A stretch of 64,000 nucleotides of DNA. Source: Bdellovibrionales bacterium. GTDB lineage: Bacteria > Bdellovibrionota > Bdellovibrionia > Bdellovibrionales > Bdellovibrionaceae. The stretch spans positions 94,068-158,067 of the forward strand of contig JANMPT010000025.1 in NCBI GenBank assembly GCA_031370005.1, written 5' to 3'. A model generated the notes under the pieces. The model was not told where the DNA came from and made no database searches. It saw only the letters and a program-made list of their open reading frames with translations. The position numbers and the translations under genes are program-made. Positions within the stretch are counted from its first letter, which is position 1. Each line of letters begins with the position of its first letter. This document shows, piece by piece, positions 52,435 to 62,549 of this stretch.

Positions 52435-52510
52435 AGGGAGTTAGCTCAGTTGGTAGAGCGCCACCCTTACAAGGTGGACGTCGCAGGTTCGAATCCTGTA
52501 CTCCCTACCA
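52435..52510 (+). tRNA. tRNA-Val(TAC)
   Basis: 76 nt: AGGGAGT/ACTCCCT acceptor stem, GCTC/GAGC D-arm, CCACC-CTTACAA-GGTGG anticodon arm, GTTCGAATC T-loop, encoded CCA. Confidence 0.97.
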
Positions 52511-54276: not shown

Positions 54277-54384
54277 TTAGTTAGTACGATCGCTTCCACC
54301 ACCAGTTTTGTCTATTTTAGTAAGCTCATGACGTTCATTTAGAAAGAAATGCTTAGCGTGTGCTCTTTCCTTTTTATCACTCAT
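54277..54384 (-). pseudogene. 35-codon remnant of the ATPase partner gene (probably an S8 protease N-terminus)
   Basis: ATGA overlap with the ATPase stop; MSDKKERAHAKHFFLNERHELTKIDKTGGGSDRTN*. Confidence 0.5.
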
Positions 54385-55292
54385 CCCATTCCCGCTTTAG
54401 AGTCGTCTAAAATCTTTTGCCTTACCTCGTTAATAACCACACGTTCAACATCAGCGAAAGAATTCACTTTTCTTAGGCTTTCAAGTGTTTTCCTTGGTAT
54501 TTTAACACCGTACCGAGTGGCCAGCTTTGAACAAAATAATTTTCGTTCCTTAAGAGTCGGCTTAGAAAATTTAACAACTAAATCAAATCTGCGCGTAACA
54601 GCAGAGTCGATGGAGTTTGGTAAATTTGATGTACAGATTAGTAGACCCAGCGGCTGAACCAACTCGAGCTGCTGCATAAGAGAAATCACAACGCGATCTA
54701 GCTCTGCAATATCTCTTGAGGTTCCCCTGGATGTTGATATTGCATCTATCTCATCAATTAAAACTACGGATGGCGTTCGTTGAATAAAATCAAAAATTGA
54801 TCTTAAGTTTTGAGATGTTTGTCCTAAATATGAACCAATCATAGCGTCAAATCTAAGAATAAAAACTGGCAACCCCAGTTGTCGCCCCAACCCCTTTGCC
54901 GTTGCACTTTTTCCACAGCCAGGAGGGCCAACAAAAAGCATTTTATTTCTATTATTTAAACCAGCCTTTTTTATCTCCCATCGCGCAATGTACTCTTCCA
55001 TAATGGTCAAAAGCTCTTTTCGGTTGTCATCACTCAGTTCGATTTGATCTATAGAATTTAAATCAGAAATCTGCGTAAGGGCTTGTCTTAGCATTTCGTC
55101 GTTTTTTATGACTTCCATAGTGCGCATCTGCGGGGAAGGATTTGCTAGAGCACCTCTTAGAAGTTGTTGGGCAGCATGACGGCCTTTTTTTCCTTCCTTG
55201 TCAGCAATAGACATAGCTATAGATCTGGTACCAGACGTGTCATTGTCAGCGATTGCATTGAAAAGTTGAAGAAGGTCGTTCGTTGTGGCCAT
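54381..55292 (-). CDS. AAA+ ATPase, IetA-like
   Basis: GPPGCGKS, IGSYLGQT, LIDEIDAI and DSAVTRRFD motifs; N-terminal A..IA..E..KGRH..A pattern. Confidence 0.8.
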   Translation of the reverse strand: MATTNDLLQLFNAIADNDTSGTRSIAMSIADKEGKKGRHAAQQLLRGALANPSPQMRTMEVIKNDEMLRQALTQISDLNSIDQIELSDDNRKELLTIMEEYIARWEIKKAGLNNRNKMLFVGPPGCGKSATAKGLGRQLGLPVFILRFDAMIGSYLGQTSQNLRSIFDFIQRTPSVVLIDEIDAISTSRGTSRDIAELDRVVISLMQQLELVQPLGLLICTSNLPNSIDSAVTRRFDLVVKFSKPTLKERKLFCSKLATRYGVKIPRKTLESLRKVNSFADVERVVINEVRQKILDDSKAGMG

Positions 55293-55936: not shown

Positions 55937-57706
55937 TCAGGACTTTTTAATTTCAAATGTAACAAATGGCACCAGAGCTTTTGGGAGAATCTTCACGTTA
56001 AGACTTGCTGCACGAGCTCTGACATGTGGTTCCTCATAGAGTGAGGTCACAAGAATCGCATGAGGCCCGATGCTAGTACGTTCAATTATATCAAGACCAT
56101 TACCCGCCTGGCCTAGGAATTCATAGCCGACGAAATACAACGCCACTGATGTTTTATTGTCTGAGCGACTCGTCGCAACCCAAGCTTCAAACTGCTCCAA
56201 GGACGAGAACGTCAAATGCTTGTTGCCCGATTCAACCGCGCCGGACGAGGCCAGCCGCCCAGCACAGATCTGGTGAATTGTTTGGTCATCATCGGCAGAA
56301 ACGAAAGCCATTCCGGGTTGCAAAATGATCTTATCAACGAACCACGATGGCGTCGCGACACGCGGCAATGATATTGTGATCATTGTACCGACTCCGACCT
56401 GCGACTGAATCCCAAATTTACCACCCGCTTTTTTGATGGCTTCCCGGGCATGAAATACACCGAGTCCTGAGCCACTCTGCGTACCCTCTTTCCCATGCGT
56501 TACTCCACGCTCACCAAGGCGAGCCAGTATATCGGGTGGAATCCCTTTCCCGTTATCGCTAATTATAACGGCGACACTCTCAGCGTAACCCCTGATCGAG
56601 ATTGTTACCAGACCAGGTCCGATGAGCGCTTCGATTGAGTTATTCACAAGATTTGAAATAACTCGAGCAAACTCCGGTGCGCAAATATGCGCGAAGAGAC
56701 CATAGCCCTGACTCAGATCACCTTGCACTTCAATCTCCATTCGTTCTCTGAATTGCACCCGCTTTTCGCTGACAATTGAGTCGAGAAGTGAAACGAGCAT
56801 GACCGATTCTGTCGCCGCCAATGCTTGGGTTGTGGACTGCTGTTCTTTTGTAGGTCGGCCCTTTTGCAAAAGCTGATTCGCGATATCATTAATACGCTGA
56901 GTGGCGTTGCGAATGATGAGCCATTTTTCTTCTGGAAGGCCCTGAAGAGTTCCAGTGATCATATTTAGCGCCGAAAGGGGCGATCGTATATCGTGAGAGA
57001 CCTGGACAGCCATCGAACTCAATGCACTTTGAATCTTCGACTGCTCCAGTTCTTTTTCAACTCGACGAAACTCAATCGCTATGTGCTTGATCCCGCCAAG
57101 CATGGGTGCCCACAGAAGCTTTGTCAGATTGCTTGGTTCCTCTTCACGCCCAAACGCCAGGAGTCCCTCGAAATAGCGGGAGATACCCGTGCCACTTCGC
57201 CAAACAAAGGCAAAGAACAAGACGACGCCGAGTAAGGACACCGCACTGGCCGCAAGCGAATGGATAACCACATTCGCCTGAAGACTCCACAATATCTGGT
57301 TCAAATCGTGATAAGAAGTCAGATACGATATTGATCCCCAACGTTCACCGCCGGGACTAAAATAAACAGGTATCACTGAAAGCAAAAAGTCTGAATTGGC
57401 CTTCAAAGTAGCAAACTCGTTACTTTCCTCTAAAAGCTGATTGCCCTTTTGGATCGAGTATTCAGAAAAGAGCGCTTCCTCGCGTAGAGAGCTGAGGCGC
57501 CCTCTGACTAGCCGAATGTGCTCCATGAGTAGATCATCATGCAAACTGCTGGTTATCTGATTGAGATAGACTTGAGTTCGATGCGCAAATATCGACGAAG
57601 CTTCACTAGCCAAAGTAGAATTTCGTGCTGACGAAACAAAGAATGACGTCAAAAACGTAATTATGGCAATTGTGACTGATACCAACCAAAGTGATGATTT
57701 TTTCAT
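55937..57706 (-). CDS. Membrane sensor histidine kinase with a degenerate C-terminal receiver domain
   Basis: Two TM helices with a periplasmic loop; SHDIRSPL H-box, NLVNNSIEA N-box, DNGKGI, GSGLG; receiver-like ADDD, LVTS and ILPK. Confidence 0.9.
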   Translation of the reverse strand: MKKSSLWLVSVTIAIITFLTSFFVSSARNSTLASEASSIFAHRTQVYLNQITSSLHDDLLMEHIRLVRGRLSSLREEALFSEYSIQKGNQLLEESNEFATLKANSDFLLSVIPVYFSPGGERWGSISYLTSYHDLNQILWSLQANVVIHSLAASAVSLLGVVLFFAFVWRSGTGISRYFEGLLAFGREEEPSNLTKLLWAPMLGGIKHIAIEFRRVEKELEQSKIQSALSSMAVQVSHDIRSPLSALNMITGTLQGLPEEKWLIIRNATQRINDIANQLLQKGRPTKEQQSTTQALAATESVMLVSLLDSIVSEKRVQFRERMEIEVQGDLSQGYGLFAHICAPEFARVISNLVNNSIEALIGPGLVTISIRGYAESVAVIISDNGKGIPPDILARLGERGVTHGKEGTQSGSGLGVFHAREAIKKAGGKFGIQSQVGVGTMITISLPRVATPSWFVDKIILQPGMAFVSADDDQTIHQICAGRLASSGAVESGNKHLTFSSLEQFEAWVATSRSDNKTSVALYFVGYEFLGQAGNGLDIIERTSIGPHAILVTSLYEEPHVRARAASLNVKILPKALVPFVTFEIKKS

Positions 57707-58632
57707 GGCAATGGATGTATCGATGTATTCATGGTTGTTAAGGGCCCCACTGCATACTGCCCGACCCTTTTATGATTGATCCGGTCACCCACGCTCGGCC
57801 CAGCAAAGTAGGGCTGAATGTTCTCGCTCTGGGCACTGACGATAAATAGTGGCCATGGCATTGCAATATGCGACTGCCAATCTTTTATTTCAATAGCCGG
57901 CGTGGTTGGCTCAATAAATGGGGTACTAGAGTTGAACAGCCACCCAACTTCAGCAAGGTGCTTTGGATTAAGGTAAAAGTCACGATGATCGCCAGGTTCT
58001 CGAACGTCACACTCCTGCATTTCTAAATTGCACTTCTCTGGATTTGTTGAAACGTAGGTATAGTTGCGGCGTTGATTCAAAATAACCCCTTCGACGGCCG
58101 ACAAAAAGTCAGTACTCGCCGATGATGCGTATACAAAGCCGAAGCCTCCCGGGCGGACCGTAGGTCGGAGCACAGAGACAACAACAAAGATGTCGCCAAC
58201 TTTCGCTTGTAGACCAATCAGACACTCAAGTCCAGCCCCTGAGAATTTCTTAACAGCCAGTTGCATCGAATCAGTAGGTTGTAGACTCTCAAGTGGCAAC
58301 CAGAGAGGAGATCGCTTTGTCAGCCAACACCCCATAACAACGTCTCGTTCAATCAATTCCGCAACCGCTGCATTCTTCGCCAGCCCCTGAGTGAGATGAG
58401 CGGCGAATCCATTTGAGCTGTGGATCGAATTCTTTTTCCCTTCGAGCAGATGGATTGACCTCTCAAAAAACTCGCTTATCGCCTTTCTAAGGGCATTCTC
58501 GCTGGAATTCCCAGAACCGAAACCGCGAATCTCCGAGCCATCCTCAAGGGAATGGTATACGCGAAAATGGTGAACGTCTGAGCCGAGCGGATCGATGAAA
58601 GTCTCTACGTTTACAAGCGAAAAATCGATCAT
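57703..58632 (-). CDS. Stand-alone YcaO-family protein
   Basis: GFGSG..KAISEFFER, SSNGFAAH and AELIERD motifs; Pro-rich C-terminus IHPLP. Confidence 0.82.
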   Translation of the reverse strand: MIDFSLVNVETFIDPLGSDVHHFRVYHSLEDGSEIRGFGSGNSSENALRKAISEFFERSIHLLEGKKNSIHSSNGFAAHLTQGLAKNAAVAELIERDVVMGCWLTKRSPLWLPLESLQPTDSMQLAVKKFSGAGLECLIGLQAKVGDIFVVVSVLRPTVRPGGFGFVYASSASTDFLSAVEGVILNQRRNYTYVSTNPEKCNLEMQECDVREPGDHRDFYLNPKHLAEVGWLFNSSTPFIEPTTPAIEIKDWQSHIAMPWPLFIVSAQSENIQPYFAGPSVGDRINHKRVGQYAVGPLTTMNTSIHPLP

Positions 58633-60170
58633 TGCCTCGGCCCAACTCCCAATTCGGCCGGCTGAATTTTCCAGAACCGAACATCCGGGTAGAGATTAGA
58701 CCAACCCGAATAATCCCAAGACTTTGAGGCAAGCAAAATGTTTTTACGATAGGCAATAGGGATTACGCCAACATTTTCTAGAAGGTCTAAACCGATTTTC
58801 TTGAGTATGGTGTGCTTGGTGTCGGGGCTCTGCATTTGTCGCGCTCGCACCAATAGTTCCTGATACTGATGTAAGTCTTGACCGACAGCAATAAGCGGTC
58901 GTGAGCTACTAAATGTTACTGAGAGGTTTTCGAGGACATCGAAAGAACTAAAGTCATTATTGATTTGCATCAGGTCGAATTGCCCTGCCTTCATCTTTGT
59001 CTCAAACTCACCAATATCCTGATAGACGTCCAAATGTATTTCGACACCCTCCTTGGTAAGAGCATCCACGATTGCTTGAGTAAATGGGAATCGGGAAGAA
59101 ACCAAAAATCGAATTGTAGACATCCTATTCCCGGCACCATCCTGGATTCGAAGAAAAACCGCATTCAACTCTTGTTCAGTTGGTCGACCGAATCCGTCAT
59201 TCAAAAAGATCTGCCGCGCGCGACTCCAATAGGGCTGGTAAGCATCGAAATCAATCTTGATATCACTGAGCTTCGCCGCCAACCACTGCCTTGCCTTAAC
59301 ATCTTGGAATTGTAGGGAAGTAAAATTGGGGGCAAGCCAGAATGTATACCCGACATGGGTATCAATGGCCTGAATGTTGGCATTTTTTTTCATTTCGGAA
59401 AAGTTCGCCGGGGTAACACCATTCATCGGAATAATAATGTCAGCTCTTCCCGATTTAAGACGCTCGAACTGATCTTCTACACTCTTGGCCCCAGTTAGAC
59501 GAATTTGCTCGGGAGCGGAACCTTTAGCGAAGGGAAAGTATGGGTTCTTGAGCAAAACAATCTCTTCCGGTAAGGAACTTAAAATCGAATACGCGCCTGC
59601 GGTCACGCTCAGATCAGGAGCGCTATCATTACCGAGACTTGGCCTAAGAGGGCCAAACTCTGGATGAACGAGTTGGGTTAAGAAACCGGGATTGGATTCT
59701 TTAAGACGAATAATGAGTGTGTTTGCTTTAGTCTCAACTGATAGAATAGTCCGAAAGTCAAAGTGGGTCGTGGAGCCGACTTTCATTTGCGCTTGAATTC
59801 CTCGCGCTATCTCGTCAACGCCGATGGACTCACCATTCGACCACCGAGCATTCTTCGCAATTTGAAAAGTGTATTTTGAAAATGAGTCTTCAATTTGCCA
59901 AGACTCAGCGAGATCACCCTCGATTTGGGCTTCACGGTTAAGATGCACGAGTGGTCGAATGAGGTGCGCCATAATTAAATACTGAGTGGCGGATCTCACT
60001 TCCCGATGATTAAGCTGGGAAGGAAGTTCGGTCGCCAGAACAACCGCAAGTGAAGAATGAAGAGGAGTCTTTTTTTTCGCCGATACTGACATAGTTATCC
60101 ATCCAATCGTGGCCAAGAACCCTGCTGCAATGACCCCTATCCAAATTTTGAAATTTCTAAATTTCATCAT
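58629..60170 (-). CDS. Orphan family-5 (OppA/DppA-like) substrate-binding protein with an N-terminal membrane anchor
   Basis: GDLAESWQI..YTF..A.WSNGE..I, TAGAY and L.KNPYF motifs; no permease or ATPase nearby. Confidence 0.85.
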   Translation of the reverse strand: MMKFRNFKIWIGVIAAGFLATIGWITMSVSAKKKTPLHSSLAVVLATELPSQLNHREVRSATQYLIMAHLIRPLVHLNREAQIEGDLAESWQIEDSFSKYTFQIAKNARWSNGESIGVDEIARGIQAQMKVGSTTHFDFRTILSVETKANTLIIRLKESNPGFLTQLVHPEFGPLRPSLGNDSAPDLSVTAGAYSILSSLPEEIVLLKNPYFPFAKGSAPEQIRLTGAKSVEDQFERLKSGRADIIIPMNGVTPANFSEMKKNANIQAIDTHVGYTFWLAPNFTSLQFQDVKARQWLAAKLSDIKIDFDAYQPYWSRARQIFLNDGFGRPTEQELNAVFLRIQDGAGNRMSTIRFLVSSRFPFTQAIVDALTKEGVEIHLDVYQDIGEFETKMKAGQFDLMQINNDFSSFDVLENLSVTFSSSRPLIAVGQDLHQYQELLVRARQMQSPDTKHTILKKIGLDLLENVGVIPIAYRKNILLASKSWDYSGWSNLYPDVRFWKIQPAELGVGPRQ

Positions 60171-60193
60171 TGCGGTGCCTCGCGAGCCCCACA

Positions 60194-60555
60194 TTAGGGA
60201 CGAAATATTTCCGTGTCATTTCCTGACAACATTTCCCGCTTGATCGCGCGATTCATCATAGAACTCAAAATCTGATTAGTTTCAGGATGCAATAATTGAG
60301 ATTCCTTAGCGAGTGACTCATTCACAATTTGCACGACAGCTGCCTGTTTCTGAGTCAGCAACGTCTGGTTTGCAATGATCGCTTTCACATTCGGATAAAC
60401 CGCGATCTTGCCGGAAAGGTAGAGGTCATTAATAACCTTTGCTGCCTCTGTATCTGAGATCACCAAGTCATCAATGGAAACGGTGGCGCAGCTCGACCAT
60501 TCGTACAAACAAGCAATAAAGACAAAATAGCGGCATTGGACACATTGTGATTCAT
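60194..60555 (-). pseudogene. Small secreted protein / putative peptide precursor, frameshifted after its signal peptide
   Basis: GGAGGG RBS and ATG at 60555 give MNHNVSNAAILSLLLVCTNGRAA; the body (TVSIDDL...REMLSGNDTEIFRP) is in another frame. Confidence 0.6.
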
Positions 60556-60994
60556 AGACCCTCCAGAAAAGAATTTATTAGCATGAAGTATTTAAAAAAG
60601 TTCAAATTCAACTCAAGGTTTGTTAAACAATGTGGGCTTTAAACCACACCCTCGGAGGCGGCGCAACAAAATTAGGCAACGCCAAGCTTTTTCCCAGTGG
60701 AGGAGCCGGTATAAAAATGACCGGGTATCATCTCACGATCACGATCAGCGCGAGATCCTTCAAAATCACTTGCGGCGTCAACCTGATGGAGAAAGAATTT
60801 TCAATGCATATCCTTTCACTACATTTCGAAAGCAGGGTTCGAGAAAATTAAGAAATATTTTCAGACTCGAAAAAAGAGTTGTCGTCCTCAAGAACCACTA
60901 TTAATTGCCCTACAGGGACCAGATGAACATTAACCTGTAAAAAGCCCTTAAAAACTGTAAATAACCTCTGCCACTTCCGAAGATCGATTTTGAG

Positions 60995-61372
60995 GTGCCG
61001 TCAAAACGGCACGTTTACTTGCGCAATATAGAACTTGGTCGCCAAAGTGCCCTGAGCCAGAAATACTTCTGCACGTCTTTTTACTTTCAAAGAAAGCTGC
61101 GCGACTTATTACTTTCTTTCTTACCCTATGAGTGTTGGCTCTCAAACTACCAACGCAAAAAGGCGTTCCGCTCGAGACTTCTGGGCTTCGTATTTAAACT
61201 CGAGTATTCGTTGTTATACGTTATCATCCATGTCATTTGCCGACTCTCACGCTTGAGATAAAAAACATCTCCCAGACAACCTCCTTTAAAATCAAGAAAT
61301 TTTTAGCGCCCAATCCAGGGACTATTGGTATGCTATTGCCTCGCGCAAGTAGCCGTGCCGTTTTGACGGCAC
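60995..61372. repeat. 30-bp inverted repeat pair (60995-61024 and 61343-61372), each with a GTGCCG/CGGCAC hairpin; REP/MITE-like
   Basis: GTGCCGTCAAAACGGCACGTTTACTTGCGC matches the reverse complement of the second copy at 28 of 30 positions. Confidence 0.85.
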
Positions 61373-61516: not shown

Positions 61517-62098
61517 CTAAAATTGGAACCCGACGTGAAGAGTTCCAAACGGAAGCCACTGTTTTGCTGAATAGGTCTGGGCTCCTATCTTTGGATCATC
61601 CCCAACCAACGAAACATAGCCAACGCCTGCCCAGGGTAAAAGATAGAGGCCGCTTGTTCCGATATTCCAACGATAGCCAACGCGTGGCATAATTATCACT
61701 GCATTGTATTTGACGACACCGCCAGCAACATTCTTGTCAATAAGTTCAAGTGCGTGGTGAGCCAGCTGAACCCCAACAAAAAGGCCCTCATTTTTTGAAG
61801 ATGATAGGTACCTATCCACAAACAGGCCAAAGCCCGACTTCAACTTTACAGTTAAATTATCAGATGATGGGCTAATGACTAAACCTTTCATAAGGCCAGG
61901 GAATTCAAGAGAATACGTACCCAGGCCAATCACCCATGGTGACCCATCTGTTTGAACTCTGATATGGGCAGCGTAGCCACCGAATGCAAAAGTCGCAGGA
62001 TCAGTCTCTACTGAGAGATCAGCGGCGTTCGCAGTTGTCGCCACAAGACTTAGCGTAAAATACAGAGCCATTACATTGAACCAAATAATCATCTTCAT
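61517..62098 (-). CDS. Small outer-membrane beta-barrel protein
   Basis: Signal peptide ending ANA; alternating beta-strands; C-terminal VGFQF. Confidence 0.7.
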   Translation of the reverse strand: MKMIIWFNVMALYFTLSLVATTANAADLSVETDPATFAFGGYAAHIRVQTDGSPWVIGLGTYSLEFPGLMKGLVISPSSDNLTVKLKSGFGLFVDRYLSSSKNEGLFVGVQLAHHALELIDKNVAGGVVKYNAVIIMPRVGYRWNIGTSGLYLLPWAGVGYVSLVGDDPKIGAQTYSAKQWLPFGTLHVGFQF

Positions 62099-62201
62099 CA
62101 CTATTCCTCCGGGTTTATAAGTGCTATAATTACTTTAATAGCCATACAGTAATTTTAAAAGTAGTAGCAAAATTGTAACTAATGGGAAGGGAAGGTAATA
62201 C

Positions 62202-62549
62202 TTGGCGAAATCTTACTCGAAAAGTGGAAAAAATAAATTTGATGACGCTTGTAACCCGAGTTGTCCCGTAAGGAAATCGCTTGAGCTTCTTGACGGTAAG
62301 TGGACTATCTTGGTTTTACGAGATTTACTTGGCGGACCAAGAAGATTTGGAGAACTCAAACGATCTCTCGGCGATCTAAATCCTAAAACACTGACAGATC
62401 GACTTCGTCAGCTTGAGAAAGCTAAAGTCGTATCAAAAAAAATATTTGCCGAGATTCCACCAAGGGTTGAGTATTCCCTCACAAAAAAAGGAATGGCACT
62501 CAAGGGCGTGATTGAGGCGCTGGCTCAGTGGGGAACCGATTGGATTTAA
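62202..62549 (+). CDS. HxlR family winged-helix transcriptional regulator
   Basis: CPV..L..KW, RRFGEL and PPRVEYSLT motifs. Confidence 0.92.
   Translation: MAKSYSKSGKNKFDDACNPSCPVRKSLELLDGKWTILVLRDLLGGPRRFGELKRSLGDLNPKTLTDRLRQLEKAKVVSKKIFAEIPPRVEYSLTKKGMALKGVIEALAQWGTDWI

Follow-up and report, generated by a model that had tools for sequence, protein, structure and literature searches.

A YcaO, binding-protein and kinase cassette of Bdellovibrionota as a candidate modified-peptide sensing system, with a probably silent copy beside tRNA-Val

Signalling by modified peptides through kinases is textbook knowledge for Gram-positive bacteria. The agrBDCA and ComQXPA systems each bring a precursor, a modifying enzyme and a kinase together in a single cassette that is hypervariable, co-evolves and falls into specificity groups, and peptide signals of integrative and conjugative elements (ICEs), such as Rap-Phr and the pheromone bound by PrgZ, are known from copies on mobile elements. 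In Vibrio, CBP is a binding protein of family 5, and LuxO acts as a sigma-54 activator. CBP is reported to bind ChiS and to control it (10.1101/2020.01.10.902320). Here we analysed a four-gene unit in a stretch of 64,000 nucleotides from a Bdellovibrionales bacterium (positions 94,068 to 158,067 of contig JANMPT010000025.1; hereafter the window). The unit consists of a region for a small secreted protein (the putative precursor), a family-5 substrate-binding protein (SBP), a stand-alone YcaO and a sensor kinase. A preliminary description had proposed that it makes a YcaO-modified peptide, exports it and senses it through the SBP and the kinase. Comparison of related loci favoured this signalling reading at the level of the family, but not peptide production by the window copy.

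As in CBP-ChiS (in the accessible text) and LuxP-LuxQ, a periplasmic binding protein is encoded with a hybrid kinase. The ligands of those systems are chitin oligomers or autoinducer-2, whereas in the cassette the ligand would be a peptide whose gene and modifying enzyme share one operon. What sets the cassette apart from agrBDCA and ComQXPA is its host, which is Gram-negative, its YcaO chemistry, its export through Sec, an SBP as separate receptor and a sigma-54 output. We propose that it would operate as a modified-peptide circuit of agr type that is read by a co-receptor of LuxP type.

Judged by the features tested, the cassette is not a member of the thiazole/oxazole-modified microcins (TOMMs), the thioamide systems or the Opp transporters. 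With the azoline-forming cyclodehydratases LynD/TruD and McbD (microcin B17), its YcaO shares the fold (Z 22-23 over 278-283 residues) and the first two ATP motifs; by aligned end points, its C-terminal tail ends at the position of McbD Pro396, and Cys/Ser/Thr-rich precursor tails are also shared with these systems. It differs from these enzymes in its length of about 300 amino acids (aa), in a degenerate third motif and in having no E1 partner with a recognition element (RRE) for peptides that are ribosomally synthesized and modified after translation (RiPPs) and no dehydrogenase in view, and its precursor carries a Sec signal peptide and is wired to an SBP and a kinase. Bufferins and oxazolins, which are modified by MNIO enzymes, follow the same logic of a Sec-exported precursor, with a Sec signal peptide on the RiPP precursor, heterocycle formation in the cytoplasm and a periplasmic product; they differ in the enzyme and in metal chelation, and the accessible text describes no SBP-kinase unit (PMC12452194). 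The YcaOs of streptamidine and bottromycin are likewise stand-alone and not fused to another domain. These systems are actinobacterial, yield amidines and have additional tailoring genes and, in the accessible text, no SBP-kinase unit (PMC8442711). TfuA, the partner in thioamide YcaO-TfuA systems, is absent from the host genome (no match to PF07812 in a genome 99.8% complete, with control matches in Methanosarcina). Opp/Dpp ABC transporters encode the SBP with permeases and ATPases, whereas no Opp-type permease was found in 150 loci of the cassette family.

In the window, the precursor region, the SBP (58629..60194, 521 aa), the YcaO (57703..58632, 309 aa) and the hybrid sensor kinase (55937..57706, 589 aa) formed one co-oriented unit on the minus strand. 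The precursor/SBP junction is TAATG, and the ATGA overlaps described earlier were found between SBP and YcaO (58632-58629) and between YcaO and kinase (57706-57703). The earlier count of four co-oriented genes was thus right for strand, but the precursor is not an intact open reading frame (ORF) because of a frameshift.

Among 61 related genomes, 38 held YcaO relatives by profile search, as did 48 of 301 genomes of the phylum. Extended flanking DNA was taken for part of the highest-scoring profile matches; together with scan loci (2 and 6, yielded by a 4-sequence alignment), this gave 110 loci. Removal of 6 near-duplicates left 104, and 85 of these, the window included, had flanks of 700 nt or more in both directions. 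Among the 85 non-redundant loci, 79 had the SBP, 80 the kinase and 77 both, so that the genetic coupling of a binding protein to a periplasmic-sensor kinase, as in LuxPQ and CBP-ChiS, is the usual state. The layout expected from the window was conserved in these 77 of 85 loci: 56 had SBP-YcaO-kinase, 14 had YcaO-SBP-kinase and 7 had the kinase upstream. A clear small ORF was present in 67 of the 77 (automatic score of ribosome-binding site and hydropathy). In an SBP-first control of 40 loci not reached via YcaO, YcaO was present in 24 and the kinase in 26, with neither in 9.

Some loci departed from the common composition. Two (L211 and L219) kept SBP and kinase without a YcaO, and in 3 loci of the control (28 of 59 neighbours scanned) a DUF4135 (LanM-type) gene stood in place of YcaO, which suggests that the modifying enzyme can be swapped. 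These are L236, L237 and L239, with L238 a likely addition, and they combine an activator, SBP and kinase with the DUF4135 gene; L239 also has a secreted 96-aa ORF with a Ser/Thr-rich end. In genomes G319 and G265 (L122, L147, L206-L210, L227), one site holds a 470-510 aa gene, a YcaO and a kinase without an SBP, and pairs of a small Cys-tailed ORF and an SBP lie elsewhere in the genome; this split arrangement possibly acts in trans.

The host genome carries three cassettes of three different clades, namely the window copy, one on contig C119 (L001) and one on C120 (L002). The YcaOs of C119 and C120 both score below the Pfam cut-off, and standard annotation therefore misses them. L001 lies downstream of a Tn5-type transposase and its YcaO ends in RFVY; L002 has a divergent kinase, a precursor ending in GDGHGSGNRVSK and a YcaO ending in LFLF. 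No YcaO relatives were found in the plasmid collection.

Both family assignments were borne out by hidden Markov models. The window YcaO matched PF02624 (E 1.7e-10; 41.2 bits, cut-off 25.7), as did 82 of 82 relatives at E<=0.01, and the SBP matched PF00496 (E 2.8e-24). At E<=0.001, the YcaO relatives comprised 476 representatives. The predicted YcaO structure (pLDDT, the predicted local distance difference test, 95) aligned with LynD, MusD and McbD across its full length at Z 22-23 (LynD 4v1u: Z 23.3, root-mean-square deviation 2.9, 283 residues) and with seven kinds of YcaO structure at Z 17-23. On this model, its closest folds are azoline-forming RiPP enzymes. The score against TIGR03604 was 37 bits (cut-off 219).

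The YcaO had been said to keep its ATP/Mg motifs. This held for motifs 1 and 2 (ExxER; S[NS]G...ExxERD), with E54, E57, R58, G75, E92, E95 and R96 invariant in 82 of 82 relatives, but not for the third motif, which we take to be R-x3-E. The window has G182..N186 at this place (sequence alignment only), where the M. jannaschii YcaO has RALTE. The motif-3 column among the 82 holds D in 34, E in 18, G in 9, S in 9 and N in 7; N186 also occurs in P0002 and P0005. R189, present in 66 of 82, may compensate for the degenerate motif. The C-terminal HP[L]x is conserved; the window enzyme ends in IHPLP as described, and the final residue is P in just 34 of 82. The aligned range ends together at YcaO residue 309, McbD 396 and LynD 775 (end points only), and the C-terminal residue of McbD is a proposed base in the accessible part of the source (PMC6395948). 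As stated before, no E1-like/Ocin-ThiF partner with RRE and no flavin dehydrogenase was found in the four-gene unit.

The window precursor opens as expected. ATG 60555 follows a GGAGGG ribosome-binding site (60559..60564, minus strand, 3 nt upstream), a spacing common to relatives L041, L043 and L069, and starts a Sec-type signal peptide, MNHNVSNAAILSLLLVCTNGRAA... (60460..60555, minus strand; best 8-residue hydropathy 3.2). A stop caused by a frameshift ends this part as a 31-aa stub, so that the body and the conserved tail (60194..60508, minus strand) lie in another frame (open from 60574 to 60194, internal starts without a ribosome-binding site; ATG-to-stop distance 362 nt). A Logan contig, from a separate assembly of probably the same sample, has identical letters across the lesion at depth 11.5. 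Pfam and NCBIfam scans of the precursor gave no match, and a homolog search retrieved, besides the window protein, only the sister precursor, itself part of the query.

Comparison with this sister locus (L125; YcaO 38-40% and SBP 43% identical) pointed to a core. The L125 precursor, otherwise unalignable, ends in GNDCEIGR where the window body ends in GNDTEIFRP (putative core 60194..60223, minus strand), a swap of Thr for Cys within a shared tail. None of 4960 other precursor windows, and 1 of 10000 shuffles, attained this match score of 32. YcaO enzymes are established to use either Thr or Cys as a nucleophile, and the swapped position is therefore the likely site of cyclisation. Across the family, a hydrophobic N-terminal stretch was present in 76 of 81 precursors, and their last 12 residues were enriched over the body 5.4-fold in Cys and 3.5-fold in Gly. 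The tails follow the YcaO tree, with Cys in PHP[IL]G clades and Asn-Lys in several RF[LV]Y members. The small protein thus looks like a YcaO substrate. The L036 precursor (148 aa) has repeated GNW units and resembles a multi-core RiPP precursor, and the precursor-like ORFs of L053 and L057, each 82 aa long, lack a signal peptide and carry an Asn-Lys tail.

The SBP has an N-terminal hydrophobic segment (residues 15-33), and its clade profile matches OppA, MppA, NikA and PrgZ structures. Its description as an orphan was upheld: no Opp-type permease lies beside the window SBP, and six permease queries, which were controlled by matching one another, found 0 ORFs in 150 loci at E<1e-4 (ATPases were not part of this search), so no permease travels with the SBP clade. 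The genome has four canonical family-5 SBPs on other contigs, three of them adjoining permease-like genes.

The kinase matched HATPase_c (E 1.1e-18) and, below the cut-off, HisKA (E 7.6e-5). Two membrane segments flank a small Cache-like periplasmic domain that resembles single-Cache domains and, by features, GAPES3/CHASE8/LapD-type sensors (score 0.94-0.96); the H-box (H238) and the ATPase boxes are intact. Tree distances among 78 cassettes were correlated between YcaO and SBP (rho 0.69) and, as would be expected of a matched sensor domain, between this domain and both SBP (0.46) and YcaO (0.42), but not between YcaO and the kinase core (0.06). The best 19 matches of the window sensor domain were all within the window YcaO clade. 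The window core, by contrast, shares 50% identity with the kinase on C119, which belongs to a different clade, and 38% with that of sister L125. The input half therefore appears to stay with the ligand-making genes and the output half to be exchanged, and the kinase looks coupled to the SBP. A predicted complex of SBP 46-513 with kinase 27-166, a fragment that takes in most of the second membrane segment, scored 0.00 with an uncertain partner fold and speaks neither for nor against contact.

Downstream output was suggested by sigma-54 elements. A sigma-54 activator motif lies adjacent in 28 loci (6 confirmed by Pfam), and a sigma-54-type promoter lies upstream of 12 of 79 cassettes, compared with 0.5% of shuffled sequences; 10 of the 12 are located 18-67 nt ahead of the first cassette gene. 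In an agr/ComQXPA-type comparison the activator would be the cassette's regulator, though both elements are absent in the window. Activator and promoter together make a feedback of the activator on the cassette plausible. Homologs of conjugation genes were found in 19 of 104 loci, and the activator was present in 15 of the 18 such loci with room on both sides versus 18 of 67 others. Scans for sigma-70 promoters and terminators stayed at chance level.

The comparative predictions on gene order, permease, tails and sensor thus hold, and a YcaO-modified peptide sensed by SBP and kinase is the best explanation. We give a probability of about 0.6 to the reading that the cassette family serves modified-peptide sensing of self or kin in Bdellovibrionota; the chemistry, binding and function are all inferred. 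In the proposed mechanism, a cytoplasmic YcaO would use ATP to cyclodehydrate a Thr, Ser or Cys close to the C-terminal end of a precursor of 50-170 aa; the product would be an azoline, because no dehydrogenase was seen. Sec would export the modified precursor, as the signal peptide indicates, and the modified tail or the whole protein would bind the membrane-tethered SBP, which would switch the kinase through its periplasmic domain in the style of LuxPQ and CBP-ChiS. Kinase output would typically pass to the sigma-54 activator, which would in turn act on the cassette. Tails, SBPs and sensor domains, each specific to a clade, would act as private channels and, since many copies are on conjugative elements, their likely use would be counting self or kin. 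Our literature search, over titles and the first lines of abstracts of papers outside subscription, turned up no paper on YcaO-based kinase signalling in Bdellovibrionota.

In favour of this reading, an [STC]-E motif occurred in 14 of 18 window-clade tails versus 5 of 63 other tails and 8 of 63 in-clade body windows. Several observations weigh against it. The motif was picked after inspection of the data, and related sequences are not independent. It is absent from 4 of the 18 window-clade tails, L150 and L108 end helix-like, and 7 of 81 tails have no C, S or T among the last 10 residues. Stronger conservation of tail than body was rejected as a general rule (24 sister pairs: 11 wins, 11 losses, 2 ties), and the tree signal of the 14 pre-tail residues equalled that of the tail (rho -0.24 vs -0.26). 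The third ATP motif is degenerate clade-wide, a dedicated protease or exporter was not seen in the conserved unit, and correlated trees are also expected from co-inheritance alone. For the mobile-element aspect, sigma-54 promoters were not enriched ahead of conjugation genes (1 of 17 vs 5%), and 49 of 85 loci had neither activator nor transfer genes in the DNA examined.

Among other explanations, bufferin-like metal handling is unlikely, though it ranks with the best of them. Here the exported YcaO-modified protein would chelate metal through azolines or Cys, and SBP and kinase would sense the loaded form as an environmental sensor. The best NCBIfam matches of the SBP are nickel-binding proteins, far below cut-off, and outside the window clade 34 of 63 tails contain Cys; the accessible text describes copper chelation by heterocycle RiPPs that Sec exports (PMC12452194). 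Within the window clade, however, Cys is found in just 3 of 18 tails, and clade-specific tails, three channels in one genome and location on an ICE suit identity signalling better.

No more probable is a reading in which the small protein stays unmodified and serves as a periplasmic accessory or ligand, and YcaO modifies another target (the SBP or the kinase, before export, or a cytoplasmic protein), in the way of YcaOs that modify proteins. The degenerate third motif, the sister-pair tails conserved no better than the bodies, and L211 and L219, which have SBP and kinase but no YcaO, would fit such a role. It would leave the Thr/Cys swap inside a conserved tail, the Cys/Gly enrichment, the invariant catalytic Glu/Arg and the conserved HP[L]x end to be explained, and the YcaO scored 12.9 bits against the ribosomal YcaO model, whose cut-off is 700.

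We consider it less probable still that the modified peptide antagonises competitors or prey, with sequestration and induction as the roles of SBP and kinase, in the manner of bacteriocin clusters that include a two-component system. The azoline-forming enzymes as closest folds and the mobile, patchy, clade-specific distribution are compatible with this, but each tail has few modifiable residues and the conserved unit has no exporter, immunity or extra tailoring gene. That the SBP passes its ligand to a distal Opp/Dpp permease in a PrgZ-like manner, with the kinase a mere neighbour, is very improbable: Opp/Dpp operons exist in the genome and PrgZ is among the structure matches of the SBP, but the kinase is adjacent in 80 of 85 loci and its sensor domain goes with the SBP clade also in kinases with an exchanged core.

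Under the peptide-sensing reading of the family, the window copy appears muted. In its C-terminal receiver, the phospho-acceptor Asp is replaced by Gly527 (codon GGC, 56128-56126); the column is Asp in 41 of the 42 kinases having a receiver, and Gly in the window only. Loss of this Asp may be tolerated, since 45 of 87 cassette kinases have no receiver. No activator, recombinase or transfer gene was found in the window up to the contig end, and no sigma-54 promoter lies ahead of the cassette (best 3 of 8); ten strong sigma-54 activator matches lie elsewhere in the host genome. With the precursor frameshifted, the receiver Asp lost and activator and promoter missing, the window copy probably makes no peptide, and the earlier claim that it does is probably wrong. 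Decay of YcaO or SBP specific to the window was looked for and rejected, with no private change at conserved columns there or in the kinase core.

Other copies were also broken. Among the 77 cassettes, L034 has a frameshift in a T run and L048 a stop at codon 8 of the precursor, no precursor was found in L103, L149 and L056, one kinase was split (L123) and no SBP was short; the SBP-first set held two YcaO fragments. Signal loss may thus recur across the family, a pattern that profile-based selection and assembly errors could mimic. From its sequence features, the window copy is best explained as a signal-null remnant that occupies a tRNA-Val hotspot and has no exportable precursor. With SBP, YcaO and kinase core intact and the precursor broken, it would be either a listener or a copy in early decay, and we hold the two to be evenly balanced.

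The hotspot is tRNA-Val(TAC) (52435..52510, plus strand), the left border of the variable island with the cassette as defined by comparison of same-genus genomes. Different islands follow this tRNA in four such genomes. In G003, an ICE at the same site (serine recombinase, coupling protein, VirB4-, VirB8- and TrbI-like genes) bears all five genes of a cassette from another clade; in G001 the island is different, and G004 and 5.7 kb of G006 are without a cassette. The window YcaO clade was found in 0 of 6 same-genus genomes, which points to horizontal gain of the window cassette. Neither at 50-64 kb nor elsewhere on the contig was the tRNA end matched by an att-like direct repeat, and no conjugation-gene homologs were found in the host genome.

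Other features of the island lie on both sides of the cassette. At 54381-55292 (minus strand), an AAA ATPase is nearest to anti-phage IteA (183 bits, cut-off 510) with no protease-sized partner ORF beside it; such a lone ATPase fits a decaying island. A 378-bp element at 60995-61372 has 30-nt inverted repeats (93%), each opening with the hairpin GTGCCGTCAAAACGGCAC, of which the genome has two copies, both in the element; it is possibly a miniature inverted-repeat transposable element (MITE) or a repetitive extragenic palindrome (REP)-like remnant. A secreted beta-barrel-like protein (61517-62101, minus strand), an HxlR regulator (62202-62549, plus strand) and a lipoprotein-like ORF truncated by the contig end (62815-63999, plus strand) had no link to the cassette that we could see.

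Taken at its widest, the proposal would describe phylum-wide communication in Gram-negative bacteria, with a minimal YcaO azoline, a Sec-exported peptide, an OppA-like co-receptor, a swappable Cache-type sensor and clade-private channels, in which conjugative elements count themselves and signal-null listeners arise repeatedly; we hold this tentatively, at somewhat under even chances. If the proposal is true, hundreds of short stand-alone YcaOs would gain a function, and the family would provide matched sets of enzyme, substrate and receptor with modified residues predicted by the Thr/Cys swap. The minimal, partner-free YcaO would be usable for peptide engineering, and the window copy would be a natural signal-null allele. 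How predatory bacteria and their mobile elements communicate could then be put to direct test.

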